Position numbers and translations under genes: made by a program. Below are positions 1 through 57,301 of a stretch of 57,378 bases of DNA, one piece after another (positions within the stretch are counted from its first letter, which is position 1; every line of letters begins with the position of its first letter). The notes under the pieces were generated by a model. The model worked only from the letters and a program-made list of their open reading frames with translations. It did not search any database and had not been told where the DNA came from. Source of the stretch: Proteobacteria bacterium UBA6156 (GTDB lineage Bacteria; Pseudomonadota; Alphaproteobacteria; UBA2136; UBA6156); contig DIUO01000031.1 of the NCBI GenBank assembly GCA_002422365.1, forward strand, positions 100,187 to 157,564, written 5' to 3'.

Positions 1-183
1 TTCAGGAAGGAATGGGTGGTGAACATCCGCTACGAACTGGCGGGCTTCAATGCCCCTGCCATGAAAATTGAAGCTTCAGAGATGGCCGATAACCCGAACC
101 CCTTGGGTGTACGGGTGGTGGGCTACACCTGGACGGAACGCAAAGACACGAAGAAGGAACCCCAAGATGTTGAAGCATTCTAG
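1..183 (+). CDS. virB8: VirB8-family T4SS protein, C-terminal fragment (5' end outside window)
   Basis: Frame +1 is open from the window edge to TAG 181-183 and reads FRKEWVVNIRYELAGFNAPAMKIEASEMADNPNPLGVRVVGYTWTERKDTKKEPQDVEAF. The NPLG-x-x-V-x-x-Y type C-terminus and the position directly upstream of virB9 fit VirB8. It is absent from the ORF track because no start lies in the window. Confidence 0.6.
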   Translation, partial: FRKEWVVNIRYELAGFNAPAMKIEASEMADNPNPLGVRVVGYTWTERKDTKKEPQDVEAF

Positions 184-1228
184 TTTGCTGGTACTGACCT
201 TGACCGTGTGCGCCAGCGCCCACGCCCAGATAGTGGACAAAAAGGTGCAGGGCATGGCCGAGGGCATCACACCTCCGAACCGGGCGGAGCGTGGGGAGGG
301 GCCTATGACCAATACCGATCCCCTGAAGCTCAACCTGAAAGCCGTTCAGGAGGCTTTTGACGATTCTCCGAATGACGCCAACGTGGCGACATTTGAATAC
401 CGCCCCGAATACACCGCCAAAGTCCGCACCCGCGTTGGGGTTCGCACCATCATCAATTTCGATCCTACCGAAACCATCAAATCCTTTGTGGTCGGTAATC
501 CTGAAATCTTCAACGTCATGCCCATTCAGAGCGGAGAATATAAAAAGGGCTTCATCCCCTACATGCTCACCGTCAAGGCCGCCTATGCGGGAACGGACAC
601 CAACCTGGCCGTGATTACCGAGAGTAATCGGATTTATAACTTCTACGTTCGGTCAGACCCCGTAAACAGCAAGTTTGTGCCGCATTTTACCGTCTATATG
701 AAGATTCCCGATAAAGGCACCGAGAAGCAAATTACCCTCTCTACGATTGCACGGATTACCGATATTTCGGAAACCGCCATATCTCAGACAACTTCTCTTG
801 AAGGCGATGAAGACAAACGGAAAGCCAAACCGAAGCTCTTCACCATCCAGCGGAGCGGTGATAACGATTACCTCAAAAGCCTGGAGGAATCGGACAACAT
901 CAATACCGATTATCGGATTAAGGGAGCCAAGGCCATAGCCCCCTACGCGGTCTATGACGATGGCAGCTTTACCTACTTCGATTACCGCGACCGGCTGGCC
1001 AGTGACCGTCTGCCAGTGGTTTACAAGGTGGTGGACGGATACGACACCCTCGTAAACTTCAATATCGTAAAAGGCTTTGTGGTAGCCGAAAGCCTTTCGC
1101 CGGAGGGTTGGACACTCCGCAACGGGCAGAAATACGCCTGCATCAAACCGACAAAGCCGGTAGGTGTCATCCAACGGGCGCCCCTGAAGGACGAACTGAA
1201 CGATGAGTACAAGGCGGCAACCGAATGA
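167..1228 (+). CDS. virB9: VirB9/TrbG-family T4SS outer-membrane core protein
   Basis: ATG 167 gives the signal peptide MLKHSSLLVLTLTVCASAHA followed by a VirB9-like core (YRPEYTAKVRTRVGVRTIINF, FVVGNPEIFNV). The ORF-track start at 68 would overlap virB8 and is not used. Confidence 0.85.
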   Translation: MLKHSSLLVLTLTVCASAHAQIVDKKVQGMAEGITPPNRAERGEGPMTNTDPLKLNLKAVQEAFDDSPNDANVATFEYRPEYTAKVRTRVGVRTIINFDPTETIKSFVVGNPEIFNVMPIQSGEYKKGFIPYMLTVKAAYAGTDTNLAVITESNRIYNFYVRSDPVNSKFVPHFTVYMKIPDKGTEKQITLSTIARITDISETAISQTTSLEGDEDKRKAKPKLFTIQRSGDNDYLKSLEESDNINTDYRIKGAKAIAPYAVYDDGSFTYFDYRDRLASDRLPVVYKVVDGYDTLVNFNIVKGFVVAESLSPEGWTLRNGQKYACIKPTKPVGVIQRAPLKDELNDEYKAATE

Positions 1229-2321: not shown

Positions 2322-4487
2322 ATGAAATCCCCCCTGTTTGCCGCCCTCGCTTTCTGCGCCCTGGCCTTTCCAGCCATGGCGGAAACCGTCAGATCCACCA
2401 TCAGCCCTACGGTAAGCGTTACGCCCACCGCACCCGTCACGGCGGCTATCGTCATATCAGGCACCAACATCCTTTTGCCTGTTGTGATTGATAAGACCGA
2501 TGGGGAAAAGAAGCTGGAAGCCCGTTTGGTCAACCTGCAAAGCGCAGGGGTCGAACTCGGCATGGAAGCCATGATTTTAGAAGGGGAAGCCGCCGCCAGC
2601 GATTCCCCGGAAGGTGGCAAGGATTACGCTATTAGCTGGGGTACGGCCTCCCTCCGCACTAAGGCGGGCGGGAAAGTAAGTACCTATATCACCAAACCTC
2701 TCCAATCTAATGTGTCCGCCAATCCTGCCGTTAAGGGCGGAGACAGCTTTACCGCTGAAGGCGACCCAGCAGAGCTTTTGGCCGCGTGGAAACGCCTGCA
2801 GGAGAAATTGAAAGATGAGGACAAAGAGGCAAAGGAGGATGCCGAAAAGAAAACCGACGCCCCGGCGCCGACAAAGGACTTTGGCGAAAACGCCAAGGAA
2901 CCTGAGCAAAAGGCCCAAACCCAAACACCCCAATTCCAGGTCAAGACCGACCCCGTAACCGTCAGCACCCGCGACGGATGCAGCATGAACGTGGATTTTG
3001 ATCAGATGGTGGCGATTGTTCAGGAACGCACCCTGCAGGACGGCAAAGAGGTTGCCGCCTGCCAAGACACGCTCACCCGTTACCCGTTGGAAAAGAAGTA
3101 CACGTCCTGCCCCAGCTTCGTGGATCTGGACGTCAAGAAAGTCTATAAGCAGTTTACCCTCAGCTATAACGACCCGGTTTCCGGAGGTGCTATCCAAGTC
3201 AAGGATTGCTCCAAGGATGTAGAGCAGGTCACGCCAATTACCTTAGACACTGCCAGTTGCAGCCTTCGTAACGACTTCACGGCGGGTAAATCCATCCAGC
3301 AGGGGCGGATGGTTTACACCGACAGCAACGGCACCATCCAAGAACTGCAATCCTGCACGGATACCGATATTACCTACCCGCACATCAAAACGGACGACAC
3401 CTGCAATGACGTGGTGGACGAGGCCAATAAGCTTGTCACCCACCAGTACCGCTACAAGATCAATAAGGATGGTACGGACGAGTTTGTATCCCAATGTGAG
3501 CCGGACATGGCGACCTCCACCCCACTTCAGGAGGAAATCTGCACCAGCCCCCGCTATACAAACGACTTTGCGGCCAACACCAGCTACCTCAACAAATCCT
3601 ATTTCTACAACAATACCCAAGGCGACCGCGTAGACGTGACCCACTGCCAAGCCAGCACAACGTCCTTCCAGCATAAGAAAGAGGAGGGGACTTGTACCGC
3701 CAGTAATGACGATAGCTCCCGCCAAACCACCATGTACGCCAAGACCTACATTGAAGAAACGGCTGGCGACAAGGTGTACCTCTCCGATTGCCAGCCCATC
3801 ACACCCAAGGTGCCCTATGTGAACATCGGCCAGAAATGGATCAAGACCAGCGGCGCCACCCAAGGCTTCAAGCTGAACGCAGACGAAAGCGGGGCATTAG
3901 CTGATTGGCTCGGAACACTCATCCGCAACACTAATAGTCCCATGCCAATACAGACGCCAACCATGGCTCAAGTACCTTGGCGTACTCAAATTCAAATTGA
4001 CTATTGGACGAACAAGCCGGGGTTAGCCATCAATGGGCAGGAATTCGTTATCAACACCCGAAACTGGTACTACTACACGGCGGATTCCTATGGCTACCAG
4101 CAGCAGAATATCCATGATTCGTCTTTTGGCGGAAGCATGAGCTGCCTCAAGCCCAAATCCCTGCCGTGGATCACGACAGGTGGACTTACGGTGGATTCAG
4201 CCAATTCCACGGAAACGCCTACCACCAACACGACCTATGCCTTGTCAAATTTCAGCATGAACTCCTCGGGCGGTAAGCTCAACTTCAACATGAACATCCC
4301 GACCAACCAGAACGGAACCGGGCAAATCAACTTCCAGTGCGGAGCGCCCACCTGCACCTTAAGCCAGTTTGCAGGGCGGAACGTCTACCGGCGCGGGGAT
4401 AATTCGGAGTTTGTGGATACCAGCGTAAGCACTGGCACCCAGGCTGTTTGCGGCGACGGCTCAAACCTTGACGGGAAAACCATGTAG
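2322..4487 (+). CDS. Secreted 721-aa Cys-rich tandem-repeat protein embedded in the virB operon (function unknown; possible surface or mating-pair protein)
   Basis: Starts 2 nt after the virB10 stop and ends 2 nt before the virB11 start. It has the signal peptide MKSPLFAALAFCALAFPAMA, a Lys/Glu-rich linker, six roughly 48-aa modules each bounded by a Cys pair (aa 220-490), and an Asn/Thr/Gly-rich C-terminal region. Confidence 0.75.
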   Translation: MKSPLFAALAFCALAFPAMAETVRSTISPTVSVTPTAPVTAAIVISGTNILLPVVIDKTDGEKKLEARLVNLQSAGVELGMEAMILEGEAAASDSPEGGKDYAISWGTASLRTKAGGKVSTYITKPLQSNVSANPAVKGGDSFTAEGDPAELLAAWKRLQEKLKDEDKEAKEDAEKKTDAPAPTKDFGENAKEPEQKAQTQTPQFQVKTDPVTVSTRDGCSMNVDFDQMVAIVQERTLQDGKEVAACQDTLTRYPLEKKYTSCPSFVDLDVKKVYKQFTLSYNDPVSGGAIQVKDCSKDVEQVTPITLDTASCSLRNDFTAGKSIQQGRMVYTDSNGTIQELQSCTDTDITYPHIKTDDTCNDVVDEANKLVTHQYRYKINKDGTDEFVSQCEPDMATSTPLQEEICTSPRYTNDFAANTSYLNKSYFYNNTQGDRVDVTHCQASTTSFQHKKEEGTCTASNDDSSRQTTMYAKTYIEETAGDKVYLSDCQPITPKVPYVNIGQKWIKTSGATQGFKLNADESGALADWLGTLIRNTNSPMPIQTPTMAQVPWRTQIQIDYWTNKPGLAINGQEFVINTRNWYYYTADSYGYQQQNIHDSSFGGSMSCLKPKSLPWITTGGLTVDSANSTETPTTNTTYALSNFSMNSSGGKLNFNMNIPTNQNGTGQINFQCGAPTCTLSQFAGRNVYRRGDNSEFVDTSVSTGTQAVCGDGSNLDGKTM

Positions 4488-4489
4488 CC

Positions 4490-5488
4490 ATGAAAGCCAC
4501 CAAGCCGCCGCTTGATCCGCTTGAGCGCGACCCGCTCATGCGGAACAAGCTCCTGCACCTTAAACCCTACCTCAGCGCAAAGAATCTGGTGGAAATCCGC
4601 ATTAACCAGCCGGGAATGGTCATTCAGACTTTTGCCGATGGAAAGAAGGTCACAAAGCCAGACCCCAAGCTCTCCTTCGATTACTTGGAGAACATGGGGA
4701 AGATTCTGGCGAATCTCACCTACCAGAGGTTCAGCGAGGATAAGCCCATTCTGGCCTGCAAGCTTCCGGGCGGGCACCGGGTTCAGATTGTGGCTTATGA
4801 GAGTGTCGCCAGCAGTTTTGCCATGGTTATCCGTATCAAACGGCAAGTGGTGTATAGCCTGGACGACTTTGGGCTGAGCCGAACCGAACAGAAGGGCGTT
4901 TTGAACGCTATAGCCAATAACAAAACCATTCTGGTGTCCGGCGGCACTGGCACGGGCAAAACTTCCCTCACCAACTGCCTTATCCCGCACATTCCGCTGG
5001 AACAGCGGATTTTGACGATTGAAGGGGTGGCGGAGCTGGTGGTGCCGCATGAGGATTGGTGCGCCTTAACTTATTCCGAGAATAAGTCCGGCATCTCCAG
5101 CAACGGCGCAGCGGAACTCCTGCGGGCTTCCTTGCGCCTCAGCCCCGACCGCATTCTGCTGGGGGAAATCCATACCGAGAATGCCGCTGTGTTCGCGTCC
5201 GCTATCAACACAGGGCATGAAGGCTCAATCGCCACCATCCATGCCAACAACCCCCGCGCCGCCATTGTGGCGCTCATCAGTAAAATGATTGTCAACGGCA
5301 GTATAGACAGTGGCAGCATCGGCATTGTCCAACGCCAGCTTTGCGAAGATATCCACGGCATCATCCAAATTGACAGGGATGCCAAAACCCACCGCCGCAA
5401 GGCGTACTTTGAAACGATGGACCGCCTTGCGGGCCTTGATCTCAAATCTGACGTGGACAGGGAGGTTCAGCAAAATGGGCATCCTTAG
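4490..5488 (+). CDS. virB11: VirB11-family T4SS ATPase
   Basis: Walker A motif VSGGTGTGKTS, RILLGEI, and a His-box-like GHEGSIATIHAN, as in the VirB11/GspE-type hexameric ATPase family. Confidence 0.9.
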   Translation: MKATKPPLDPLERDPLMRNKLLHLKPYLSAKNLVEIRINQPGMVIQTFADGKKVTKPDPKLSFDYLENMGKILANLTYQRFSEDKPILACKLPGGHRVQIVAYESVASSFAMVIRIKRQVVYSLDDFGLSRTEQKGVLNAIANNKTILVSGGTGTGKTSLTNCLIPHIPLEQRILTIEGVAELVVPHEDWCALTYSENKSGISSNGAAELLRASLRLSPDRILLGEIHTENAAVFASAINTGHEGSIATIHANNPRAAIVALISKMIVNGSIDSGSIGIVQRQLCEDIHGIIQIDRDAKTHRRKAYFETMDRLAGLDLKSDVDREVQQNGHP

Positions 5489-7118
5489 CCGCGTCCTCAT
5501 GGCGGCGCCGGCAGGTTACTTCGTAGCCTCGGCCGGCGTCTGGTATCAGCAACCCAATTTGGTGACGCGGCCGGAGGGGCTTTACAAAGCGTGGGCGGCC
5601 CTTGGCCTTCACGCCCCGAACAGCATGTGGCTGGCGGCGTATGCCGCCGCCTTCGCCGTGGCCTTCATTCTTGTGCATCCCAGCCTTGAGCGCAGCAAGT
5701 ACGGTAAGGCCAAGTGGGGTAATTGGCGCACGGCGCGGGAACTGAAGCTGAATGGCAAGCAGGGAATTTTCCTTGGCCTGCTGGACGGCAAACCTCTGCG
5801 CCTGGATGAAAGCCTGTCGGTTTTGATACTCGCCCCTCCCGGCACCGGCAAAACCTCCGCCATCGCTATTCCCACGCTTCTCACCAGCCGCAACAGCTTC
5901 ATCATCAGCGACCTCAAGGGAGAGTTATTCGACCTCACGGCGCCCACACGCAGCACGTTCAGCCGGGTTTGGTACTTCAACCCCACCAGCAAAGGCACCG
6001 CTCGCTTCAATATCTTCGCCGCCAGCATGATGCCGAAGAGCATATTGGACTTTAGCGGCCATGTTTTGAACGCGGCCCACATCATCATTGAAACTCCGCA
6101 AAAGGGCGAAGACTACTTTACCAAGGCGGCGCGGGATGCCTTCGCCTTCTTCGCCCAATGGCTGATATGGAAAAACGGGGCAACCTCCCTCCCTGAAATC
6201 CGCAGCCAAATCCTGTCCAGCGAGGATATTGCCGGTACGGTGGAGGACATGATTGCCGACCTGGAAGGCGAGGGGGCGTTGAGTTCGCATAATGATTGGA
6301 GCGAGTACGGCCCCGGCATTATCCAAAAGCTTATCGAGGACGGGCGCAGCACGCTTGTTGCCGCCAGAAGCGAGGAACAATGGGCGGGTGTAATGGGAAC
6401 ACTCTCCACTTCCCTACAGCCGTTTTCCGATCCCCGGATTGCCGCTGCCACCAGCGGGCCATCCGACCTCAACGCTGAAGACCTGAAGAAGGAATGCACC
6501 AGCATTTACCTTGTCATTCCCGACAAAGACCTGGCCCGCCTCTCTCCCATCGTCACGCTCATTTTTGAAGCTTTAGGCTCCCAGCTTATCTCCGAAATGC
6601 CGAAACCCGCCCAAGTGCCGGTCACGTTCCTGCTGGATGAGTTTATACGCCTCGGCAAGCTGAAACAGGTCAAGGAGCTTCCCGCCATCTCACGCGGCTA
6701 CCGCGTCAATGCGGTATTCATCGCCCAGGACTTCCAGCAGATAGCCGACAAATACGGGCGGGAAGCGGTAAGCATTTTCAACTCGACCTGCGCCTACAAG
6801 GTCATTTTCCGCCAGAACGACCTCAAGACCGCAAAGGATATCAGCGACACCATAGGCAACTTCACCACCACCAAACTCAGCACCAGCCGTTCCGCCAAAG
6901 GCATCCTCAAAACCGAGCGCAGCACCAGCGAAGCCGAAGAAGGCATAGCCCTAGTAAGCGCCCAAGAGATTCTCAACCTCAGCAAGGAGGAAAGCATAGT
7001 CATAGGGCAGGGGGAGCTTATGCACCCGCTGAAAGTGAAAAATGGATTTTGGTTCTCCCAGAAAGATATGATGTCCTTAATAAGAACTAATGCATTTCGG
7101 AGAGAGGTTTTGGGTTGA
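5475..7118 (+). CDS. virD4: VirD4/TraG-family type IV coupling protein
   Basis: ATG 5475 (MGILSRVLMAAPAGYF) overlaps the virB11 stop by 14 nt. The product has two N-terminal TM helices, Walker A LILAPPGTGKTS, and FLLDEF (Walker B region). The ORF-track start at 5310 lies inside virB11 and is rejected. Confidence 0.9.
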   Translation: MGILSRVLMAAPAGYFVASAGVWYQQPNLVTRPEGLYKAWAALGLHAPNSMWLAAYAAAFAVAFILVHPSLERSKYGKAKWGNWRTARELKLNGKQGIFLGLLDGKPLRLDESLSVLILAPPGTGKTSAIAIPTLLTSRNSFIISDLKGELFDLTAPTRSTFSRVWYFNPTSKGTARFNIFAASMMPKSILDFSGHVLNAAHIIIETPQKGEDYFTKAARDAFAFFAQWLIWKNGATSLPEIRSQILSSEDIAGTVEDMIADLEGEGALSSHNDWSEYGPGIIQKLIEDGRSTLVAARSEEQWAGVMGTLSTSLQPFSDPRIAAATSGPSDLNAEDLKKECTSIYLVIPDKDLARLSPIVTLIFEALGSQLISEMPKPAQVPVTFLLDEFIRLGKLKQVKELPAISRGYRVNAVFIAQDFQQIADKYGREAVSIFNSTCAYKVIFRQNDLKTAKDISDTIGNFTTTKLSTSRSAKGILKTERSTSEAEEGIALVSAQEILNLSKEESIVIGQGELMHPLKVKNGFWFSQKDMMSLIRTNAFRREVLG

Positions 7119-7119
7119 T

Positions 7120-7147
7120 TTGAATTGTACGCAGATAGTGTTATATT
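7120..7147 (+). promoter_or_regulatory. Putative sigma70 promoter with extended -10 for the AT-rich cargo operon
   Basis: TTGAAT (7120-7125), a 16-nt spacer, and TGtTATATT (7139-7147), located 20 nt upstream of the first cargo ORF. Confidence 0.35.
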
Positions 7148-7167
7148 ACCGACCTTAAACAAAGAAA

Positions 7168-7398
7168 GTGAGTGATATGACCGAAAAGAAAGATGGCGGC
7201 CGCCAGTTTGTCACAGATCAGGCTTTATCATCCGCATCATTGCAAAATGGTATGACCACAGCGTCGTTACAAAAAAGCCTTACTTCTGCAAATTTGCAAG
7301 CTGCATTAACACCCACACCTGCACCAGCTCAAACAGGTGCAACATCTGCAACTGCCGCCACTGTTGCTCAAGCATCAACCACTACAACTACAAAATAA
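7168..7398 (+). CDS. Small 76-aa protein with three 9-aa (27-nt) repeats and a Thr/Ala-rich tail; unknown function
   Basis: GTG 7168 (alternative ATG 7177). The motif (S/T)A(S/N)LQ recurs at aa 22-26, 31-35 and 40-44. The stop overlaps the next start as TAATG, which argues that it is translated. Confidence 0.45.
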   Translation: MSDMTEKKDGGRQFVTDQALSSASLQNGMTTASLQKSLTSANLQAALTPTPAPAQTGATSATAATVAQASTTTTTK

Positions 7399-7898
7399 TG
7401 TGCTTCATTGACTTTGCAGCACCCGTTGATTGGGAAGCGGTATCTTACATAGCAACGGCTATATCTACAGTGGTTGCTATTATTGGTTTCGGTGCTGTCA
7501 CCTATCAAATCCTGCAAGCCAGAAAGAGTTCTGATTTAGAGGGGATTCAAAGTTTCTTTAGCGGCATAACTCTCCGAGAACATGAGTTTATTACTGCTAC
7601 CATTTGCGATAATAAAACAAAGTCGTTTAATGAACTGGTTAATTATTTTGAAGTATATGCGCTGGCAATAAATAAGAAATTGTTGCCTAAAGCCAGCAGA
7701 GACTTAGTGATTGATAAATTGATCGAGGGCATTGCTCTTATTCATGTTGATGCAACATGGCTCACTAGCTATCAAAGTGCAAAAATTACACCTAATACAT
7801 TTTGTGAACTTGAAAAGTTTACAAATAAATATAAGAAGAAAATTGAAGCTCATAAGCTGCGCTTTCAGCCACCTCTAACCGAAGTAAAGTCTTCCTAA
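7398..7898 (+). CDS. 166-aa single-pass membrane protein, unknown function (layout reminiscent of DUF4760-type proteins, from memory only)
   Basis: N-terminal TM helix AVSYIATAISTVVAIIGFGAVTYQIL followed by a soluble helical region (NYFEVYALAINKKLL). It is translationally coupled to both neighbours and is AT-rich like them. Confidence 0.6.
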   Translation: MCFIDFAAPVDWEAVSYIATAISTVVAIIGFGAVTYQILQARKSSDLEGIQSFFSGITLREHEFITATICDNKTKSFNELVNYFEVYALAINKKLLPKASRDLVIDKLIEGIALIHVDATWLTSYQSAKITPNTFCELEKFTNKYKKKIEAHKLRFQPPLTEVKSS

Positions 7899-7900
7899 AC

Positions 7901-10378
7901 ATGGCTGAAGTATCCGCTACAATTCGTTTACGTCCAACCAGAATTGGTTTTTTGGTTAGACCAAACGATCTAAAATCAATCCGCCGATTTATGCAATATT
8001 CCACCACAATATGGGGTGGCATGTATAATCCTATTATACCTGTATGCAAGATACCGCCAAAACATTGGAGGACAGGGTTTAAGAGAGATTCTCAAAATAT
8101 TAGCCAAGGTTATGTAAAATTTTTTGAACCAGATGTGTTTGTAGAAGCTGAAAAAGGGCTTTTAGAAGAAGCGGGACTTGGCGCACTTCGGCCTAAACAC
8201 GCTATTTACTCAAGCGTTATTACTCTCGATGAATTCTTAAAACCAGAGCGTGCTAAAAATTGGTCTGAGCCTGCATTTAGCGTAAGCATGAATGATGTTT
8301 ATAACCACCTTTATGAAACCGAACAAAGGTTTGAGCAAAAGAAGAAAGCCAAAACCTTTCTCATTAAGCCCGATCCCAACAGTGGCATTACAGAAGCATT
8401 ATTCGGCGTGTTCCCAAATCACCGCCATTGTGACTATTTTAAGAAAAATTATAAAAGCTTGTATGGTGCCGTTGAAAAAGAGCCTGACATTGAAACCTGG
8501 CTTGAAGTATTCAAGAAAAATGCGAGGGTTCCCTTATATATCACGAGCCATGATTTAGATACGAAGAGATCATGGCATCATGATTCTGTTATATTTGTCT
8601 TTAATCCTAAACTAGCTACTGACCTCATTGATCTTTGGAATATGAGACTTGAGCCGAAACCTATTCTTCCAATACCCGTTGAATGGTTTGAAAAGCTTAT
8701 TCCAGAAATTTCAAAATTTATTAAAAGCGAACATAGGCCACTTCAAGGCAATGAACATGGGGTCATGCACCATTCAACTATTGAATTTAGTCGATCTATC
8801 AATGACGAGACTAGTAAATCTCTCATTAGCAAACTACCTAAATTTCCTTCCGGCGCGTTGGCCGTAAAAAACTGGCGCAACCGTATTTGGGTAGAGCATA
8901 AGGATGAATTCATTATGAGAGATAAACGGTTAGAAATAACCGTTGATGAGACACGGGCTAGTTTAGTCCTTAATCCAGAAAGAGATTCGCTATATGCAAA
9001 TTTTGAAGCCCTCTATCCTAAGTTTGCCTCAACATATGGTGGACATGATTACCGTTGGGTAAATGCAGTTCGTATCAGTACCTATGGCTCAGAAGTTGTG
9101 GGAAGTGTTCTTCCCTTTAATACATTCCAACGGATATGGCCGAGATTGGAAACTCTTGGGGGGGAAGCAACGTTAATTGGAACTGAAGGCTGGATATATC
9201 CCCAACGCTTTAAAAAATCGGATCAAAGCATTCGTTTCCTCACTAAGGAAGACGCCATTATTGGGGCACTCAAGCAAATGGGGGTTGAAGCGAAGCTTTC
9301 CGATCCAGGCCATATTGCAAAGCAAATGCTTGAACATCTCGGAAGGCTTTGGAGCGTCAAGGCTCTTGCAGACTTAAAAACTATTGAGCTTTTGAACAAG
9401 ATGGCTGGTGGGTTACGTCGGAAGTCAAATATGACAGACACTATTGAAGAGAGTTTTGAACGCCACTCCGTGCCTGTTAAAGATTGGGTAGATTTGATTG
9501 AGCGGAGAAAAAAGCAGGACTTCGGCCGGTTTGAGCTTGAAGATTTCACATCAAGAAATATCATTCGCTTAGGTTTGGAAACCTCTTGTCCTACCTGCAA
9601 GACAACAAACTGGCATAGCTTGACCGCTACAGATTATAAAATGTCATGTGAGCGCTGCCTGAATGAGTATGATTTTCCCCAAGCAAAGCTCCAACTCAAT
9701 AACAAAAATTGGGCGTACAGGGTGGTGGGACCATTTTCAGTCCCCGATTACGGGCAAGGGGCTTATAGCTCGCTCTTGACACTCAGAGCCTTAAATTGCC
9801 TGCATGGTGCCAGCGATGAAATGACATTTTCAACATCACTTAATGTTGCATTTGATGGGGAAAATGCAGAGGTTGATTTCGTAGCGTTTCATAGGCGAGA
9901 TACCCATGGTGATGAAACCATGCCAAATTTAGTGATTGGAGAAACCAAATCGCTTGGTAAAAGAGACCTCCTCAAACCTAAAGATATCTCCAAGCTTAAA
10001 CTTGTAGGGGCTAAGTTACCCGGTGCCTTTATAGCCGTATCCGTTATGAGAGATCATTTTACGAAAAATGAGAAAAAACTTTTAACAAGTCTGGTTAAGT
10101 GGGGGAGGCGCATAGATCAAAATGGAATGCCGACAAACCCAGTAATCCTGATGACTGGTAAAGAACTGTTTGTTGACCATTTTATATCATCGACATGGAA
10201 AAGCCTTGGTGAACCGCATTCTAAGTTTGAAGATTATAACCACACACGAAACCTTCATGCATTTGCTGATTCCACACAGCAAATTTATTTGGGATTATCC
10301 CCTACATCACAAGTTCATAGGCAAAAATTTGAAGCTCGAAGAGCTAAGGTGTTGGCGAAAAGGGCGGCGGCGGCTTAG
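7901..10378 (+). CDS. 825-aa protein of unknown family: large N-terminal region, CxxC-x16-CxxC zinc ribbon, C-terminal PD-(D/E)xK-like nuclease core
   Basis: Long uninterrupted ORF in AT-rich DNA. The zinc ribbon is C563/C566/C583/C586 (CPTCKTTNWHSLTATDYKMSCERC, nt 9587-9658). The putative nuclease core is D659 ... E681-x-K683 (EVDFVAFHRRDTHGDETMPNLVIGETK, nt 9875-9949). No Walker A motif is present anywhere. Confidence 0.8.
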   Translation: MAEVSATIRLRPTRIGFLVRPNDLKSIRRFMQYSTTIWGGMYNPIIPVCKIPPKHWRTGFKRDSQNISQGYVKFFEPDVFVEAEKGLLEEAGLGALRPKHAIYSSVITLDEFLKPERAKNWSEPAFSVSMNDVYNHLYETEQRFEQKKKAKTFLIKPDPNSGITEALFGVFPNHRHCDYFKKNYKSLYGAVEKEPDIETWLEVFKKNARVPLYITSHDLDTKRSWHHDSVIFVFNPKLATDLIDLWNMRLEPKPILPIPVEWFEKLIPEISKFIKSEHRPLQGNEHGVMHHSTIEFSRSINDETSKSLISKLPKFPSGALAVKNWRNRIWVEHKDEFIMRDKRLEITVDETRASLVLNPERDSLYANFEALYPKFASTYGGHDYRWVNAVRISTYGSEVVGSVLPFNTFQRIWPRLETLGGEATLIGTEGWIYPQRFKKSDQSIRFLTKEDAIIGALKQMGVEAKLSDPGHIAKQMLEHLGRLWSVKALADLKTIELLNKMAGGLRRKSNMTDTIEESFERHSVPVKDWVDLIERRKKQDFGRFELEDFTSRNIIRLGLETSCPTCKTTNWHSLTATDYKMSCERCLNEYDFPQAKLQLNNKNWAYRVVGPFSVPDYGQGAYSSLLTLRALNCLHGASDEMTFSTSLNVAFDGENAEVDFVAFHRRDTHGDETMPNLVIGETKSLGKRDLLKPKDISKLKLVGAKLPGAFIAVSVMRDHFTKNEKKLLTSLVKWGRRIDQNGMPTNPVILMTGKELFVDHFISSTWKSLGEPHSKFEDYNHTRNLHAFADSTQQIYLGLSPTSQVHRQKFEARRAKVLAKRAAAA

Positions 10379-10550
10379 CTAAAAGTCAGGAAATACCGCT
10401 ATCGAAAATTGCTGGAAATTGTTGACTTTTATTGGGACTATTTATCGGTATTAATATTTGAAATTATTGTCAGTATTCCCGAATCCATCACGCGCATAAG
10501 CCATCGTTGAGGGCAACCTCAGCTCGTATCAACAGATGGAGTATAAGCCA

Positions 10551-11312
10551 ATGGCTACCAAAGCAATCAACCATGAAGAGGCAATCACGGAAGCCGTGAA
10601 CAACCTCAGCAAGCGTGAGGTTCTTTTCTCTTACGCCGTTACCTTCGATAAGATCAGTAAGGACATCAGCGACAGCATCACCGCCCTTTCCCATAACAAG
10701 AAAGAGTTGGCTGGGCTGGATGAACGGGTGCTGAAGATTATCGGCAGTTCGTACACCAAGCCTGAAAAGGTGGTGGAGGATTTTAACAAAGCTCGCACCA
10801 GCCAACGTCTTGTGATGGTGGAAACCATGATGAGTGAACCTGAAAAGCTTGGGAACCTGAAAAAGGAACACACCCTGGACATACTCAAAACGCAGAAAAT
10901 CGGCATGGACTATAAGTTCCAGGTTGACCGTCGCGTGGATAACACCATCAAGACCAAAACCGCCAAAGGCGAAATCAAGCGCCATGCCGACCAGGTGTGG
11001 AGTACCGCGCAAAAGTTTGCCCGCGACAACGAATATAACGAGTTTGTCCGTGCCAAGACCCCGGCGGACAAGTTGGACAGCCGCCTTGTGAAGGGCTACC
11101 TGACCGACCAAGAGGCTTTGAAGCAGCTTGTCGCTAATGCGCCGGTTGTCGCCTTGGATGCCTTGAAGGAAAAGAAAATCGACTTCAACGGCAAGCTTCG
11201 GCCCCACCAAACCGTGCGTAGCCTGCAAGATCGCGCCGGTCGTGAGCAGGAGCAATCCAAAACCCAAACCCGCCAGCGCACCCAAAGCCGCCAACGTGGA
11301 TTGAACATCTAA
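10551..11312 (+). CDS. Hypothetical 253-aa Lys/Glu-rich protein with an Arg/Gln-rich C-terminal tail
   Basis: ATG 10551 lies 9 nt after GGAG; the ORF-track start is 10536. Composition is typical of a real soluble protein, whereas the overlapping minus-strand ORF 10488-11366 is Leu/Gly-rich antisense-type. The tail reads RAGREQEQSKTQTRQRTQSRQRGLNI. Confidence 0.6.
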   Translation: MATKAINHEEAITEAVNNLSKREVLFSYAVTFDKISKDISDSITALSHNKKELAGLDERVLKIIGSSYTKPEKVVEDFNKARTSQRLVMVETMMSEPEKLGNLKKEHTLDILKTQKIGMDYKFQVDRRVDNTIKTKTAKGEIKRHADQVWSTAQKFARDNEYNEFVRAKTPADKLDSRLVKGYLTDQEALKQLVANAPVVALDALKEKKIDFNGKLRPHQTVRSLQDRAGREQEQSKTQTRQRTQSRQRGLNI

Positions 11313-11315
11313 CAG

Positions 11316-11338
11316 GAAGCCCCTCAGGGGCTTCTTTT
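11316..11338 (+). terminator. Rho-independent terminator-like hairpin
   Basis: GAAGCCCC-TCA-GGGGCTTC followed by TTTT, immediately after the stop at 11312. Confidence 0.5.
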
Positions 11339-11355
11339 GAAGAAGGAGCAATGTA

Positions 11356-11544
11356 ATGACTGTCAAAGCTGAAATCTACCTCGACTTCCATCACAAGCAC
11401 GGCATCAGTCCTGCTGTTATCCTCTCGGCTATGGAGGATAACGGGGAAGAGGAGGGGGTTATCAAGGATGTGATTGGCCTGTTTGAGTATGAAGGCTATT
11501 CAGAAGCCGATATCCGTACCGCCATGCGGGAACTGGAATATTAA
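11356..11544 (+). CDS. Hypothetical 62-aa acidic protein
   Basis: GAAGGAG lies 7 nt upstream of ATG 11356. The ORF is followed by a clean terminator. I recognise no family. Confidence 0.5.
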   Translation: MTVKAEIYLDFHHKHGISPAVILSAMEDNGEEEGVIKDVIGLFEYEGYSEADIRTAMRELEY

Positions 11545-11558
11545 GGGATAATTCTGGA

Positions 11559-11582
11559 AAACCCGGTGAAGACCGGGTTTTT
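11559..11582 (+). terminator. Rho-independent terminator
   Basis: AAACCCGGT-GAAG-ACCGGGTTT running into TTTTT. Confidence 0.6.
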
Positions 11583-11595
11583 AATTAAAAAGTGC

Positions 11596-11626
11596 TTGAT
11601 TCTCTAGTGGCTAGAGCGTGCATAGA
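11596..11626 (+). promoter_or_regulatory. MerR-type promoter/operator P1 (19-bp spacer with dyad) upstream of the czcI-like/czcCBA operon
   Basis: -35 TTGATT (11596-11601), the 19-nt spacer CTCTAGtggCTAGAGcgtg containing a perfect 6+6 dyad, and -10 CATAGA (11621-11626). It is near-identical to the site at 17962-17992. Confidence 0.7.
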
Positions 11627-11685
11627 AGCCTCATGGCTCTTAATAGAAGGCTCTTAAAACTTGAACGCGCACGCAACAACATGGT

Positions 11686-12030
11686 ATGCATAGGCCAATG
11701 AAGAAGCTTTGGACTCTTTCTGTATTGGTAATGTGCGCGGCGCTGGCTATGGCTCAGTTCGCACACGCCGGTACGGCGGAGAATACCAACTGCGATGTTG
11801 TGAAATCTGAACAGCATATCCAATCTGCTGTTGAAAAGGTTTCTTCTATTCAGAATGAAGGCGACAAAGCCGCGCAGGAAAACTGCTGCGAGAGCTGCCA
11901 CCTTCAACTTATATCCCTTCCTGAAATTGCCGTGGATCGCACGGCACCCGAAGGCGAGCCTATGGCCGCCGTTCCCGCGTCTCCGCGTGGAATCTTCCTG
12001 GATACGCTATCCGAACCTCCTCAGGCGTAA
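11686..12030 (+). CDS. CzcI-like small periplasmic protein
   Basis: Signal peptide MKKLWTLSVLVMCAALAMAQFAHA, a Cys/His cluster ENCCESCH, and a C-terminal LSEPPQA tail. It is the first gene ahead of czcCBA. Confidence 0.6.
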   Translation: MHRPMKKLWTLSVLVMCAALAMAQFAHAGTAENTNCDVVKSEQHIQSAVEKVSSIQNEGDKAAQENCCESCHLQLISLPEIAVDRTAPEGEPMAAVPASPRGIFLDTLSEPPQA

Positions 12031-12119
12031 TGCTCGGCTAGCATGACCGCAACGGCCTATGTAGGCACGTTCCGGCATGTGGATTCCTGCAAGTGCAGGC
12101 ATCCCAATTCATCCAACCA

Positions 12120-12434
12120 ATGAAGTATAGAGATATGAAATATACCCTGATGATGGGCGCCGTAGCCATGGCTATGACTGTGGGTGCCGTTATGAATGTG
12201 ACCGCTGATGAACAGAACCACAGCAAACCCGGCCACCAGCACCGCTCGGAAAACTATGAACAAGGCAAAGTTGAGAAGGAAGTTACGAAAGTAGCTCAAA
12301 TCTCTCCTGCTGAAGGTGCAACTGATGGCAAGAAACTGCCGGGCCGCGACTGCAAGCTTTATGAAGGTGGCACACGCCAGCACACTTTCCCGCAGTACGA
12401 AATCGGCAACCCGAACCGCCCGGAATGCCAATAA
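12120..12434 (+). CDS. Small secreted His-rich protein, unknown (putative periplasmic metal binder)
   Basis: ATG 12120 or 12135. It has the signal peptide MKYTLMMGAVAMAMTVGAVMNVTA, the stretch DEQNHSKPGHQHRSENYEQ, and two C-terminal Cys. Confidence 0.5.
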   Translation: MKYRDMKYTLMMGAVAMAMTVGAVMNVTADEQNHSKPGHQHRSENYEQGKVEKEVTKVAQISPAEGATDGKKLPGRDCKLYEGGTRQHTFPQYEIGNPNRPECQ

Positions 12435-12498
12435 CCACCATGGATACAGGGCCGGAATTCTCCGGCCCTGCTTCCCATGTTTGTGAAAGAAGTTTGTA

Positions 12499-13802
12499 AT
12501 GAGAAATACCTTAACGGCCTGTTCAGCTCTGGCGATGCTCTTCTATATGAGTGCGTCCAATGCCACTGAGCAGAATGTGCCACCCGTCATTAGCCCGACG
12601 ACACATACGAATCATCAACGCTATTTGGGGCTTGCTGAGGCTATTCAGAAGGCGATGGCGAACTCTCCCCGCATCAAGGCGGCGGAAGCTGTTTTAAGTG
12701 CCTCCCGAGGGGCGGAGCGTCAGGCCGGTGCCTGGGCAAACCCCGAAGTTGGCGTGGAGGTCGAGAACCTTGCCGGAAGCGGCCCCTATAAAGGCACCAA
12801 ATCTGCTGAATTCACCTATAACCTTTCCCAAAAGGTGGAGCTTGGTAAGCGCCCCGCCCGTAGGCGTGTCGCCGGTGCCGAGCGGGAAACCGCCAGTATT
12901 GCCGTTTTGGCCGAGAAACTGGATATCGCCCGCGATGTGAAGATTGCTTACGCGGATGTGCTGGCCGCTGAGCGCACCTTACAATTAGCCGAGCAACAGG
13001 AAAAGCTGGCCGAAGATGTGCTGGCAAATGTCGCCAAGCGCGTAGGCGCGGCCCGCGACCCGTTGATTTACAAATCCCAAGCCGAAGTTTCACTGGCAAC
13101 GGCCAGGATGGCCCGCGCCCAAGTTATGCGGGATGTGCAACTGACCCGCAAAAAATTGGCTGCCCTTTGGGGCGGGGAACCGCTGGCGCAAGGGTTGGAC
13201 GAAAGTGTTTTGAACAGCGTTGAACAGCCAGCGCCTTTTGAAACCTATAAAGCCAGACTGGCGGAAAACCCGGACCTGACCCGCTTCATTTCCATGAAGC
13301 TTGCCAAGGCTGCCGCTATCAAGCTTGAGAAAGTCCAGAACATACCCGACCCCAGCGTGAATGTCGGCTTCCGCACGTTCCGCGAATCCAACGAGCAAGC
13401 GATGGTGGTTGGTGTTTCCATGCCGATCCCGGTGCTGGACCAGAACCAGGGCAACATCGCCAAGGCCCGTGCCGAACTAAACCAGGTCGAAAACGAAGGC
13501 CTCACCGCCGGACTGGATGCCGAGCAAGCCTTGCAGGAGGCTTGGCAGGAGTGGGAACTGGCCTACACGGAAGCCAAGCAACTGCATGACAGCATTATTC
13601 CGACTGCCGAGAAAGCCTTTACCTTATCCCGCGAAGGCTATGAACGCGGGCGCTTCTCCTATCTCGAAATCCTCAATGCCCAACGCACGCTTTACGAAGC
13701 AAGGGGCCAATACAACCAATCACTGCAACGTCAGGCCACGGCCAAGGCTCAGGTGCAACGCCTGACCGCCGAACCTGTCACCATTCTTAAGGGGGAAATC
13801 CA

Positions 13803-29287: not shown

Positions 29288-29655
29288 GATGCTTTCCTTT
29301 CAAGATATGACACCATCTCAAAGTGAGAATTCTTGTGTAAAATATCAATTTGATACCGCAATAAATGTTTCCATTTTGTAGAAAATATCGTCGGCCTTGC
29401 CGGAGGAGAGTTGAAGCCCCATGCGGGGCTTAACCTGTTTGTCGGTGATCTGATGCCGGCCAGGAACCCGTCAAGCCTTTCCCCCAACCTTCCCCCTCCG
29501 GGGTGCAGGCTGGGTGGTCCCCCCTTGGCTTGACTGAACCCTGTCCTGCACCGGGGCGGGGAAACTGGCTCCGCCCAGTTTCCCCGAACCCCTTCAGGCT
29601 CGCCAGGTTAAGCGCCGCTTTTGTGTGGTGCCTTAATCAACAGGAGAGCATTCCC

Positions 29656-31347
29656 ATGACCACCATACAGACCATAGCCCTCAACAAGCTTTTTCCTTCC
29701 AAGGCCAATGTACGCCGGACGGATAGCGGGGAGGGGCTTGCCGAGTTAGCCAACAGCATCGCCGTTCACGGCCTGCGCCAGAATTTGAACGTCAAGGCGA
29801 CCGAAGGCGGCAAGTTTGAGGTAGTGGCGGGTGGGCGGCGGTTCCGTGCCTTGAAGCTGCTGGCGAAGCAGGGTGCGATGCCGAAAAACTTTGAGGTTCC
29901 CTGCAATGTGTTGGGTGAGGGGGATGATGCGGTGGAGATTTCCCTTGTGGAGAATACGATGCGGGTGGCGATGCACCCTGACGACCAGTTTGAGGCTTTC
30001 CAGCAGCTAGTGCAGGCAGGGAAGGGGGTTGAGGAGATTGCGGCCCGTTTCGGGGTGACGCCTTCGGTGGTGGAGCGGCGCTTGAAGCTGGCGAAGGTAT
30101 CCCCCAAGTTGCGGGCGGTATTCCGTGCGGGTGAGTTGACCCTTGACCAGATGATGGCGTTTGCGGTGAGTGACGACCACGAGCAGCAGGAAGAAGCTTT
30201 CAAGAACCTTCAAAGCTGGAACAGCACGCCCCGCGATATTCGGGCGGTGTTGACCCAAGAGGCCGTGCCCCTCTCCCATCCGCTGGCGCGGTTCGTGACC
30301 GAGGCCAGCTATATAGCGGCGGGTGGGGTGATGCAACGCGACCTTTTTGACGAGCAAAACGAGGGCTACATGCCTGACCGTGGGTTAGTGTTGCAACTTG
30401 CCAGCCATAAGCTTGAAGCGGCGGTGAGTATGATTGAGGCCGAGGGCTGGAAATGGGTGAAGGCGGAAATGGAGCGCGACTACTCCACCAACTATGGGCG
30501 CATTCATCCCACCTATGAGGAAAACGAAGAAGGGGAGCGGGTGCCGCTGTACGACGAGGACGACAAGGCCCGTGGCGGAGCCATCATCCGCATAGGCCAC
30601 GAGGGCGAACTGGACGTGACTAGGGGGCTTGTCCATCCTGACGATGTGAAGGCCATTAGCAGGGAGCCGGAAGAAGGCGAGAGCGCCCCCAAGGAGGCTG
30701 CAACCATTCCGGCCTCGGTCATTCGGGAACTGTCGGCACACCGTACCGCCGCCATCCGCCTTGCCATGGCGGAAAACCCCCAAGTTGCCTTGGCGGCAAC
30801 CGTTCACGCCGTAGCCCTGCCGCTGTTTGGCAATCACGGCTATCACACCAGCCTAGACATAACCCTAAGAAGCCAGCGCGTGGCCGACATGGTGACGGTG
30901 AAAGCGGATTGCAAGGCACATGAGGCCATGGCTGACCATGCCGCCTATTGGGGGGAGCGCCTTCCCAGCCATCCGGCGGACTTGTTCGCATGGTGTCTTG
31001 AGCAACCGCAAGACGTGCTGTTGGCGCTTCTCGCCTATTGCACGGCCTCCAGCGTGAACGCTGTGCAAGACAAGTTCGACAATGGCAATTCTCCACGCCT
31101 CGCCCATGCCTCCGTCTTGGCGGAGTTCCTTGCATTAGATATGGCCTCCCAATGGCAACCGAGCGTTGAGGGCTTTTACAACAAGCTGTCCAAAGCCGCC
31201 TTGTTGATGCTGGCAAAGGATGCCGGAGCAACCTTGAGCCTTGTTGTGGGGAATGTGAAGAAGCTGGAAGCCGCCCGCGATGTGATGCAGGCCATTGCCC
31301 AGACCAACTGGCTCCCGCAGATTTTCCGCAACGCGGAGGCCCGTTAA
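29656..31347 (+). CDS. ParB/Srx-superfamily N-terminal domain protein (ICE/plasmid ParB-like)
   Basis: ATG 29656 follows CAGGAGAG. The product shows IALNKLFPSKANVRRTD, LAELANSIAVHGLRQNLNV and FEVVAGGRRFRALKLL (ParB box), followed by a long C-terminal extension. The ORF-track start at 29503 is rejected. Confidence 0.8.
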   Translation: MTTIQTIALNKLFPSKANVRRTDSGEGLAELANSIAVHGLRQNLNVKATEGGKFEVVAGGRRFRALKLLAKQGAMPKNFEVPCNVLGEGDDAVEISLVENTMRVAMHPDDQFEAFQQLVQAGKGVEEIAARFGVTPSVVERRLKLAKVSPKLRAVFRAGELTLDQMMAFAVSDDHEQQEEAFKNLQSWNSTPRDIRAVLTQEAVPLSHPLARFVTEASYIAAGGVMQRDLFDEQNEGYMPDRGLVLQLASHKLEAAVSMIEAEGWKWVKAEMERDYSTNYGRIHPTYEENEEGERVPLYDEDDKARGGAIIRIGHEGELDVTRGLVHPDDVKAISREPEEGESAPKEAATIPASVIRELSAHRTAAIRLAMAENPQVALAATVHAVALPLFGNHGYHTSLDITLRSQRVADMVTVKADCKAHEAMADHAAYWGERLPSHPADLFAWCLEQPQDVLLALLAYCTASSVNAVQDKFDNGNSPRLAHASVLAEFLALDMASQWQPSVEGFYNKLSKAALLMLAKDAGATLSLVVGNVKKLEAARDVMQAIAQTNWLPQIFRNAEAR

Positions 31348-32670: not shown

Positions 32671-32747
32671 TGGCGCGCCCGAAGAGATTCGAACTCCTGA
32701 CCCTCAGATTCGTAGTCTGATACTCTATCCAGCTGAGCTACGGGCGC
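32671..32747 (-). tRNA. tRNA-Arg (anticodon ACG), CCA encoded
   Basis: The reverse complement is GCGCCCGTAGCTCAGCTGGATAGAGTATCAGACTACGAATCTGAGGGTCAGGAGTTCGAATCTCTTCGGGCGCGCCA. It folds as a cloverleaf with a 7-bp acceptor stem, the anticodon loop CT-ACG-AA and the T-loop GTTCGAATC. Confidence 0.9.
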
Positions 32748-56985: not shown

Positions 56986-57073
56986 GGAAGCGTGGCAGAG
57001 TGGTCTAATGCGCCGGTCTCGAAAACCGGTTGGGTGCAAGCCCTCGGGGGTTCGAATCCCCCCGCTTCCGCCA
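56986..57073 (+). tRNA. tRNA-Ser (anticodon CGA), CCA encoded
   Basis: GGAAGCGTGGCAGAGTGGTCTAATGCGCCGGTCTCGAAAACCGGTTGGGTGCAAGCCCTCGGGGGTTCGAATCCCCCCGCTTCCGCCA. It has the 7-bp acceptor GGAAGCG/CGCTTCC, the anticodon loop CT-CGA-AA and a long variable arm. Confidence 0.9.
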
Positions 57074-57078
57074 AATGC

Positions 57079-57166
57079 GGAGGAATGGCAGAGTGGTCGA
57101 ATGCGTCGGTCTTGAAAACCGAAGAACCGCAAGGTTCCGTGGGTTCGAATCCTACTTCCTCCGCCA
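57079..57166 (+). tRNA. tRNA-Ser (anticodon UGA), CCA encoded
   Basis: GGAGGAATGGCAGAGTGGTCGAATGCGTCGGTCTTGAAAACCGAAGAACCGCAAGGTTCCGTGGGTTCGAATCCTACTTCCTCCGCCA. It has the anticodon loop CT-TGA-AA and a long variable arm. Confidence 0.9.
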
Positions 57167-57224
57167 TTTATTTTAGCGTTACTTCTGGACAGACTGGGCT
57201 ATTGCTATTACAAACGCCGCAGTT

Positions 57225-57301
<77 letters not shown>

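Follow-up and report, generated by a model that had tools for sequence, protein, structure and literature searches.

Background

Shedu (SduA, DUF4263) is a single protein in which a large non-NTPase N-terminal region is followed by a C-terminal PD-(D/E)xK nuclease, and it resides in defence islands. NotI carries a Cys4 metal-binding motif N-terminal to its catalytic domain. Cdn1, Card1 and Can2 are DUF1887 proteins that join a CARF domain to a PD-(D/E)xK nuclease and are switched on by cyclic oligoadenylate; in the Can2/Card1/Cdn1 family, the nuclease domains form an active, metal-dependent site after a rearrangement that is triggered by ligand binding at the N-terminal domain (PMC12825302). 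END nucleases provide single-gene, methylase-less defence against hypermodified phage DNA and consist of a PLD-family nuclease and an inactive EndoIII-like sensor (PMC12191111). The gene described here encodes a protein of 825 amino acids (aa) and lies in a stretch of 57,378 nucleotides (nt) from Proteobacteria bacterium UBA6156 (assembly GCA_002422365.1, contig DIUO01000031.1, positions 100,187 to 157,564), hereafter called the window. From its predicted structure it is well supported that the product is a nuclease of the PD-(D/E)xK fold (predicted activity) preceded by a four-Cys zinc ribbon. Judged from its sequence, it appears to be a stand-alone, probably regulated nuclease with a new domain architecture and an unassigned, deeply conserved N-terminal domain.

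The DUF1887 proteins Can2, Card1, Cdn1 and VC1899, effectors of type III CRISPR-Cas, are the best and only significant structural matches of the 825-aa protein. It shares with these proteins a C-terminal PD-(D/E)xK nuclease that follows an alpha/beta domain, which is regulatory in them. In contrast to them, no CARF is recovered from its N-terminal half modelled alone (predicted local distance difference test, pLDDT, 61.9), none of 58 family members has a DUF1887 match in Pfam, the protein is twice as large, with extra beta-rich, helical and zinc-ribbon modules, and neither type III CRISPR nor cyclase genes were seen among the neighbours, a single locus (L089) being situated near a type I Cas3. 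With Shedu it has in common the lone protein, the C-terminal core, the large non-NTPase N-terminus and the residence in defence islands. However, none of the PADLOC families, whose models include SduA, matches at E ≤ 0.1, Pfam gives no DUF4263 match, and the N-terminal domain is constant and highly conserved even in a paralogue of 22% identity, whereas that of Shedu is variable. NotI and McrC likewise possess a PD-(D/E)xK core, in NotI with the Cys4 site ahead of it, but neither a cognate methyltransferase nor a McrB-type GTPase occurs near the gene, and the fold matches to both are not significant (E 0.16-0.24). END nucleases are similar in concept, being one gene without a methylase in which a nuclease is fused to a recognition domain (PMC12191111), but the 825-aa protein contains neither a PLD-family nuclease nor an EndoIII-like sensor; identity with them was rejected because the END enzymes belong to the PLD family and are unrelated. 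By analogy, the protein would work most like the CARF-nuclease effectors and the Shedu-type nucleases, yet the comparisons place it in neither family.

Sequence features and conservation

The initial annotation, made from the sequence alone, had placed an open reading frame (ORF) at 7901-10378 and read from its translation a four-Cys zinc ribbon, a PD-(D/E)xK-like nuclease core and no NTPase motif; the ORF and every motif coordinate proved correct. Four of the seven Cys of the protein form C563-P-T-C566 ... C583-E-R-C586 (CPTC-x16-CERC; C563 at nt 9587-9589, C586 at nt 9656-9658), and a CxxC-x8-30-CxxC pattern arose in none of 20,000 shuffles of the protein. A D-x10-30-(D/E)xK pattern, as given here by D659 (nt 9875-9877) and K683 (nt 9947-9949), arose in 19,946 of the 20,000 shuffles (99.7%), so that the bare motif proves nothing by itself and takes its weight from conservation. 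The absence of an NTPase motif was borne out: the Walker A pattern [AG]xxxxGK[ST] and the looser GxxxxGK and GK[ST] are all missing from the protein.

The residues C563, C566, C583, C586, E657, D659, E681 and K683 are invariant in 40 homologues of 50-82% identity, and the same eight hold in 58 genome-derived members of 22-82% identity. In a set of 110 sequences reaching down to 22% identity, which includes one unrelated control protein and with it one exception at every position, each of the four Cys, D659, E681 and K683 is kept in 109 sequences and E657 in 107. The alignment of homologues that had been proposed as a check on the Cys and D/E/K positions is thus in their favour down to the most distant members. 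An acidic residue of helix 1 of the core, D616, is not strictly conserved (D in 44, N in 41 and another residue in 25 of the 110).

Outside the ribbon and the core, P12, R14, G39-G40, D78, G169, D241 and W246-N247 are invariant in the N-terminal region and R11, W38, N43, E76-P77 and D244 nearly so, while S467 and G470 of a helical module are invariant in the 110-sequence comparison. The strings IRLRPTRIGFLV, WGGMYNPIIPV and FVFNP..ATDLIDLWN, all of the N-terminal region, are among the best-conserved motifs of the family. Columns conserved to at least 90% make up 26% of N-terminal lobe A, 23% of the zinc ribbon, 13% of the nuclease core and 6-8% of the remainder; the most conserved part of the 825-aa protein is its N-terminal lobe. 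The description of the N-terminus as sensor-like in the initial annotation therefore fits poorly, since fast-evolving or swappable sensors of the Shedu type behave differently; the gating by the zinc ribbon named there is likewise conjectural.

Full-length homologues of 22-82% identity align to the protein from residue 1, and the ATG at 7901 is the right start, the first 30 residues being kept across the family. Public gene calls for the protein (P0001, L004) comprise 795 aa and lose these 30 conserved residues. About one fifth of the family is called some 30 codons too late in public records, by which the conserved first strand RLRPTRIGFLV is cut (window 7901-7990; L004 10001). Promoter and terminator scans around the gene gave matches no better than in shuffles.

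Predicted structure

The full-length protein was modelled with AlphaFold2 from the 40-sequence alignment (mean pLDDT 83.4, predicted template modelling score, pTM, 0.82). Six successive regions are distinguished in the model (Table 1). The nuclease core displays the order alpha-beta-beta-beta-alpha-beta, with a helix at 615-632, strands at 640-651, 654-665 and 676-683, a helix at 693-705 and a strand at 710-715; the second strand carries E657 and D659, and the third ends with E681-x-K683. Block means of pLDDT in the core range from about 64 to 96 and exceed 90 at 641-660 and 691-730. Ahead of it, four short strands at 555-562, 569-573, 580-582 and 589-591 hold both CxxC knuckles. In the model the ribbon is thus a predicted metal site with two CxxC knuckles on beta-hairpins and all four Cys conserved, and the initial reading of a zinc ribbon agrees with this arrangement as well as with weak zinc-ribbon matches in Pfam (see below). 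The helical module between the beta-rich domain and the ribbon possesses a helix-helix-helix-strand-strand order (468-518), which suggests a winged helix. The beta-rich domain itself was modelled poorly in isolation.

The top matches in a Foldseek search of the PDB with the full-length model, a check proposed along with the alignment in the initial annotation, are all PD-(D/E)xK nucleases. VC1899 (1xmx; E 6.1e-5, probability 1.00) and Cdn1 bound to cyclic tetra-adenylate (cA4; 9u49; E 9.4e-5, probability 1.00), both PD-(D/E)xK effector nucleases, are the only matches at E ≤ 1e-3. Card1 comes next (6xl1, 0.018, and a second match at 0.045), and McrC and NotI stand lower in the list. Against BFVD, one unnamed match was obtained at 5.5e-4.

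Residues 1-450 modelled alone gave no match in the PDB at E ≤ 1e-3 and no CARF protein among the top 50, and a CARF identity of the N-terminus was rejected on this result. Because no CARF protein was obtained with this part, the matches of the full-length model to CARF nucleases probably come from its C-terminal half. The sub-model matches generic two-lobed Rossmann-like folds (NSF, ANL adenylation domains, glutamate racemase, UDP-GlcNAc 2-epimerase) with probabilities below 0.6, those of the NSF and AAA folds being at most 0.16. As modelled, the N-terminal region would have no recognisable relative among solved structures.

Family size and library searches

Pfam, PADLOC, PHROGs, NCBIfam and the PDB sequences contain no match to the 825-aa query, in agreement with the earlier remark that the combination was not recognised. 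Neither did ten divergent family members match Pfam, nor two family profiles the PDB sequences. When 58 members were compared with Pfam at E ≤ 0.5, repeated weak votes were obtained for zinc-ribbon families only, namely Phage_zn_bind_2 (12), Zn_ribbon_4 (11) and Zn_ribbon_IS1595 (6). In these searches of Pfam, NCBIfam and PDB sequences with the query, the ten divergent members and the 58 members, no curated PD-(D/E)xK profile was matched. Failures of this type are common in the highly divergent PD-(D/E)xK superfamily, for which the protein qualifies by fold and active-site residues and not by a curated sequence model.

Among 5.8 billion proteins, a word-indexed search gave 486 matches. The best 120 of these are 775-860 aa long, share 50-82% identity with the query over 92% or more of its length, possess no Pfam domain and are either unnamed or named 'hypothetical protein'. 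With a HMMER profile, 2,742 clusters of 50% identity were found at E ≤ 1e-3 among 1.84 billion cluster representatives, 848 of them at E ≤ 1e-30. The top 150 clusters are mostly full-length; the shorter ones are partial matches, possibly to fragments on short contigs. No description of this protein family was found in a literature search.

Distribution, neighbours and mobility

When 185,579 species, each represented by one genome, were scanned by pattern, 85 relatives in 75 loci were obtained, a lower bound because the scan patterns were restrictive. Hosts belong to the Alpha-, Beta-, Gamma- and Deltaproteobacteria, Nitrospirota, Nitrospinota, Acidobacteriota and Planctomycetota, and further to the Spirochaetia, Latescibacterota, Binatia, Oligoflexales and one bacterium of the Candidate Phyla Radiation; the distribution of the family is patchy across many phyla. 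Anaeromyxobacter sp. PSR-1 has two family copies on different contigs (L063, L075), with 34-35% identity to the query.

After clustering of all ORFs within ±6 kb in the 75 loci, no neighbour was common to more than four independent loci, higher counts all being due to copies of the window's own element. A conserved partner gene was rejected on this clustering together with a direct BLAST comparison of the neighbours, and it is well supported that the family functions without a dedicated partner. A small membrane protein that would always precede the gene, an idea prompted by the window and by loci L001, L003 and L010, was rejected as well, because segments resembling transmembrane helices are present in 26% of upstream neighbours against 12-24% at control positions. 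No methyltransferase recurs beside the gene, Type I S subunits accounting for two of 126 immediate neighbours; Cas10 and cyclases are not among the top neighbour families, and relaxases, type IV secretion systems (T4SS) and integrases show no conserved association across the 75 loci.

The 126 immediate neighbours are heterogeneous and comprise T4SS coupling proteins, integrases, resolvases, the Type I S subunits, HEPN, AbiEii, DUF4411, an ArdC-like metallopeptidase and MADS components. Single loci include an integrase island (L001), a site beside a Tn7-like element (L002), a locus with AbiGi nearby (L010), an island with SNase, integrase, recombinase and type I Cas3 (L089) and a defence island with HipA, TIR and DUF499/DUF1156/helicase (L090). 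A distant paralogue of 768 aa and 22% identity on plasmid pCC829_2 of Bradyrhizobium barranii (L012) keeps RPxR...WGGxxNP, the two CxxC, the Asp and GExK. It is followed by a 758-aa protein with no Pfam match (L012 6702-12276), and the two share an island with AbiJ, DUF2971, a peptidase of family S8 and the toxin-antitoxin pair PrlF/YhaV.

That the gene is horizontally mobile accessory cargo is well supported. In 57 of 70 loci it is poorer in GC than the flanking DNA, the median difference being -6.4 points. The family is absent from 50,697 phage records; in IMG/VR, a copy was found in the early region of one Mu-like prophage (repressor, MuA, MuB, DUF3164, baseplate J). This copy (L091 7862-10411) and one on a Photobacterium damselae plasmid (L011 7861-10411) share 90% nucleotide identity over the gene alone. 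Since the flanks of the two copies are unrelated, the mobile unit is the single gene, and the pair reflects a recent transfer of that gene between phage and plasmid.

Proposed function and alternatives

We lean, with modest confidence, towards a self-contained, mobile, metal-dependent PD-(D/E)xK nuclease that is carried as cargo of mobile elements and most likely constitutes a single-protein conflict or defence system. Nuclease activity is predicted from the modelled core and its active-site residues, and the role would be one in conflict between genomes, as defence against phages or against other mobile DNA. The company of conflict-type genes, among them HEPN_LA2681, AbiGi, AbiJ, YhaV/PrlF, HipA, TIR, DUF499/DUF1156, Cas3, Type I S subunits, AbiEii, DUF4411 and MADS proteins, and of integrases, recombinases and a Tn7-like element supports the defence reading. 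In the working proposed here, the C-terminal core (E657/D659/E681/K683) would cleave nucleic acid, while the four-Cys zinc ribbon beside it and the helical module, perhaps a winged helix, would hold the substrate. The N-terminal alpha/beta domain (WGG, N43, E76-P77-D78, D241, D244, W246-N247) would bind a conserved ligand or nucleic-acid feature, or might alternatively carry a second metal-dependent activity; either way it would set when, or on what, the nuclease acts, and thereby probably control it. A sensor of a variable phage protein is disfavoured because the N-terminal lobe is so highly conserved. Such constancy speaks for recognition of a conserved ligand or of a conserved feature of DNA or RNA, or for a possible second catalytic site built from the invariant acidic residues.

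Several observations weigh against a defence nuclease. The assignment of a defence role derives from genomic context, as no model of PADLOC, Pfam, NCBIfam or PHROGs matches, and sensors of phage proteins do not typically have an N-terminal domain so strongly conserved. The TM-scores of the Foldseek matches are low (TMt 0.33-0.35, the aligned residues not being reported by the tool) because only part of each chain aligns. The failure of the N-terminal region to match known folds is a weak negative, given the modest quality of its sub-model. The census of 126 neighbours, for which there is no matched control set, also includes the housekeeping genes for FTHFS and ribosomal protein L17, and nothing seen at loci L003 and L088 points to mobility or defence.

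A solitary restriction enzyme of Type IV style, whose N-terminal and beta-rich domains would read a DNA modification or other non-self feature and whose nuclease would cut directly, with neither a signal molecule nor abortive infection, appears unlikely, though it accounts for a good part of the data. It fits the missing methyltransferase or other conserved partner, the fusion of the nuclease to putative DNA-binding modules (zinc ribbon and helical module), the presence of NotI and McrC among the weaker fold matches, and a highly conserved N-terminal pocket, which would be better suited to a fixed chemical feature than to a variable phage protein; the layout corresponds to the sensor-plus-nuclease modularity of modification-dependent enzymes (PMC12191111). 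However, no SRA, EVE, PUA, YTH or other known reader fold is found among the top Foldseek matches of either model, none of the 58 members has a reader domain in Pfam, and the best fold matches are to effector nucleases switched on by a ligand and not to restriction enzymes.

The gene might instead serve the element that carries it, by competition with or exclusion of rival plasmids and integrative conjugative elements (ICEs), as an addiction-like module, or in the processing of DNA during transfer or integration. In two related ICEs it does occupy the same position, between virD4 and a gene for 253 or 258 aa, and has diverged in step with the backbone (82% against 72-88% identity), and a plasmid and the Mu-like prophage, in its early region, also carry copies. 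This is nevertheless improbable, for most members are not beside transfer, replication or integration genes, several being in plain chromosomal or defence-island settings, and a conserved association with relaxase, T4SS or integrase is missing over the 75 loci. The foreign GC content of the gene speaks against it too, as such a composition is unusual for backbone functions.

That the protein has no part in defence, and is instead a selfish homing-type endonuclease or a nuclease with which the cell repairs or recombines its DNA, is very improbable. PD-(D/E)xK nucleases are common in repair, some loci are among housekeeping genes, and the gene inserts alone; but the distribution is patchy (at least 85 relatives in the genomes of 185,579 species), the GC content is mostly below that of the flanks, and synteny is not conserved. 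To our knowledge, a protein of 825 aa with five or more domains is also far larger than known homing endonucleases. Hardly any credence can be given to a catalytically dead core in a protein that acts as a DNA-binding or scaffolding factor only, for which the loose conservation of D616 could be cited, since E657, D659, E681 and K683 are essentially invariant family-wide, which is not expected of a decayed active site.

Returning to the preferred conflict or defence nuclease, a more specific form of it is put forward tentatively and with less than even confidence: the protein could be the first representative of a new, widespread immune or exclusion system made of one gene, in which a new class of N-terminal sensor for small molecules or nucleic acids, or a second metal-dependent catalytic site (E76/D78/D241/D244), controls a zinc-ribbon-tethered nuclease, and which spreads as a lone cassette among ICEs, plasmids and Mu-like prophages across more than 10 phyla. 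Large as it is (2,742 clusters), the family is not covered by any model of Pfam, NCBIfam, PADLOC or PHROGs, and all public copies encountered are labelled 'hypothetical protein'. If the gene does encode a defence or exclusion nuclease, it would add a new single-gene system to the catalogue, give a function to a cargo gene of heavy-metal-resistance ICEs, and supply a new regulatory domain. Since only one gene is concerned, with clear catalytic and zinc-binding residues, the family is directly testable by expression and point mutation.

The host element

The left 32.6 kb of the window are an ICE or genomic island (Table 1), because past tRNA-Arg the composition and GC skew shift abruptly and the genes are housekeeping ones. 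A megablast search with 5300-12500 against sequenced plasmids found no match for the host element.

Table 1. Positions of the nuclease gene, its predicted protein regions and further features of the host element in the window.
Feature	Position (nt)	Residues (aa)	Strand	Basis or remarks
825-aa protein gene, complete	7901..10378, stop codon included	1-825	+	longest ORF at this position
Two-lobed alpha/beta (Rossmann-like) N-terminal region, predicted	7901..8905	1-335	+	model secondary structure, conservation
Beta-rich domain, predicted	8906..9241	336-447	+	strands 345-446 in full-length model, pLDDT ~83-88
Mainly helical module, predicted	9242..9556	448-552	+	DSSP of model
Four-Cys zinc ribbon, predicted	9557..9700	553-600	+	Cys codons 9587-9598 and 9647-9658
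PD-(D/E)xK-type nuclease core, predicted	9701..10180	601-760	+	E657/D659 codons 9869-9877; E681/K683 codons 9941-9949
Helical C-terminal tail, predicted, end poorly conserved	10181..10375	761-825	+	model, conservation
T4SS	left end of window			VirB9/CagX, VirB10/TrbI, 721-aa protein, VirB11, VirD4/TraG coupling protein
76-aa low-complexity ORF	7168..7398		+	stop overlaps start of 166-aa ORF (TAATG)
166-aa ORF, one N-terminal hydrophobic segment	7398..7898		+	stop 2 nt before ATG at 7901
Heavy-metal cargo	after 258-aa gene			CzcCBA-type RND efflux, cation diffusion facilitator, MerR, multicopper oxidase, CopB, CusF, P-type ATPase
ParB-like gene	29503-31347
tRNA-Arg	32671-32747		-

The 825-aa gene is placed just after virD4 in a cassette of low GC content (76-aa ORF 0.46, 166-aa ORF 0.38, 825-aa gene 0.41), compared with 0.55 in the T4SS backbone. 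The 76-aa ORF may be the first cistron of this cassette, and from the overlap of their codons it and the 166-aa ORF are probably coupled in translation. A promoter-like site at 7120-7147 is a consensus match only and no more frequent than in shuffles. The 166-aa ORF has only sub-threshold matches in Pfam (DUF4760 and LAGLIDADG_1, both below the curated cut-offs) and was seen only in copies of the window's own element (L004-L007), as a local neighbour and not a family-wide partner. Downstream, a 258-aa ORF (10536-11312, + strand) of backbone-like GC content and without family match overlaps an ORF on the opposite strand (10488-11366, - strand); the 258-aa ORF is the real gene, because it is 88% identical to the 253-aa gene of a related element (L008) and its GC content at third codon positions (GC3) is 0.68.

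In that related element (L008/L009), a homologue of 82% identity occupies the same site between virD4 and the 253-aa gene, so that the 258/253-aa gene adjoins the nuclease gene in both sister ICEs. Orthologous backbone proteins of the two (VirB10, VirB11, VirD4, the 258/253-aa protein and ParB) are 72-88% identical, from which it follows that the 825-aa gene has diverged together with the ICE backbone. The slot upstream of the nuclease gene differs: instead of the 76/166-aa pair it contains a 506-aa HEPN_LA2681 gene on the opposite strand (L008 8460-9980). The site behind virD4 behaves as a cargo hotspot with the 825-aa gene as a stable resident.

The 721-aa ORF of the T4SS locus (2322-4487), located between virB10 and virB11, has no match in Pfam, PHROGs or NCBIfam. 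The sister element L008 carries two tandem copies of it, one of 711 aa (65% identical) and one of 698 aa (45%), and the ORF appears to be a duplicating component of the T4SS locus.

At 33000-57378, in the chromosomal stretch, the GC skew is positive and unusually strong (+0.18 to +0.36 per kb) and the AT skew negative; the inserted element left of tRNA-Arg has almost no skew. The skew of the chromosomal stretch is independent of gene orientation, because its housekeeping genes lie on the + strand (ComEC, Ugd, AsnB) as well as on the - strand (GltX, TatD, RlpA, MltB). Three tRNA genes (Ser-CGA, Ser-TGA and Pro-TGG) are clustered at the right end of the window, at 56986-57301.

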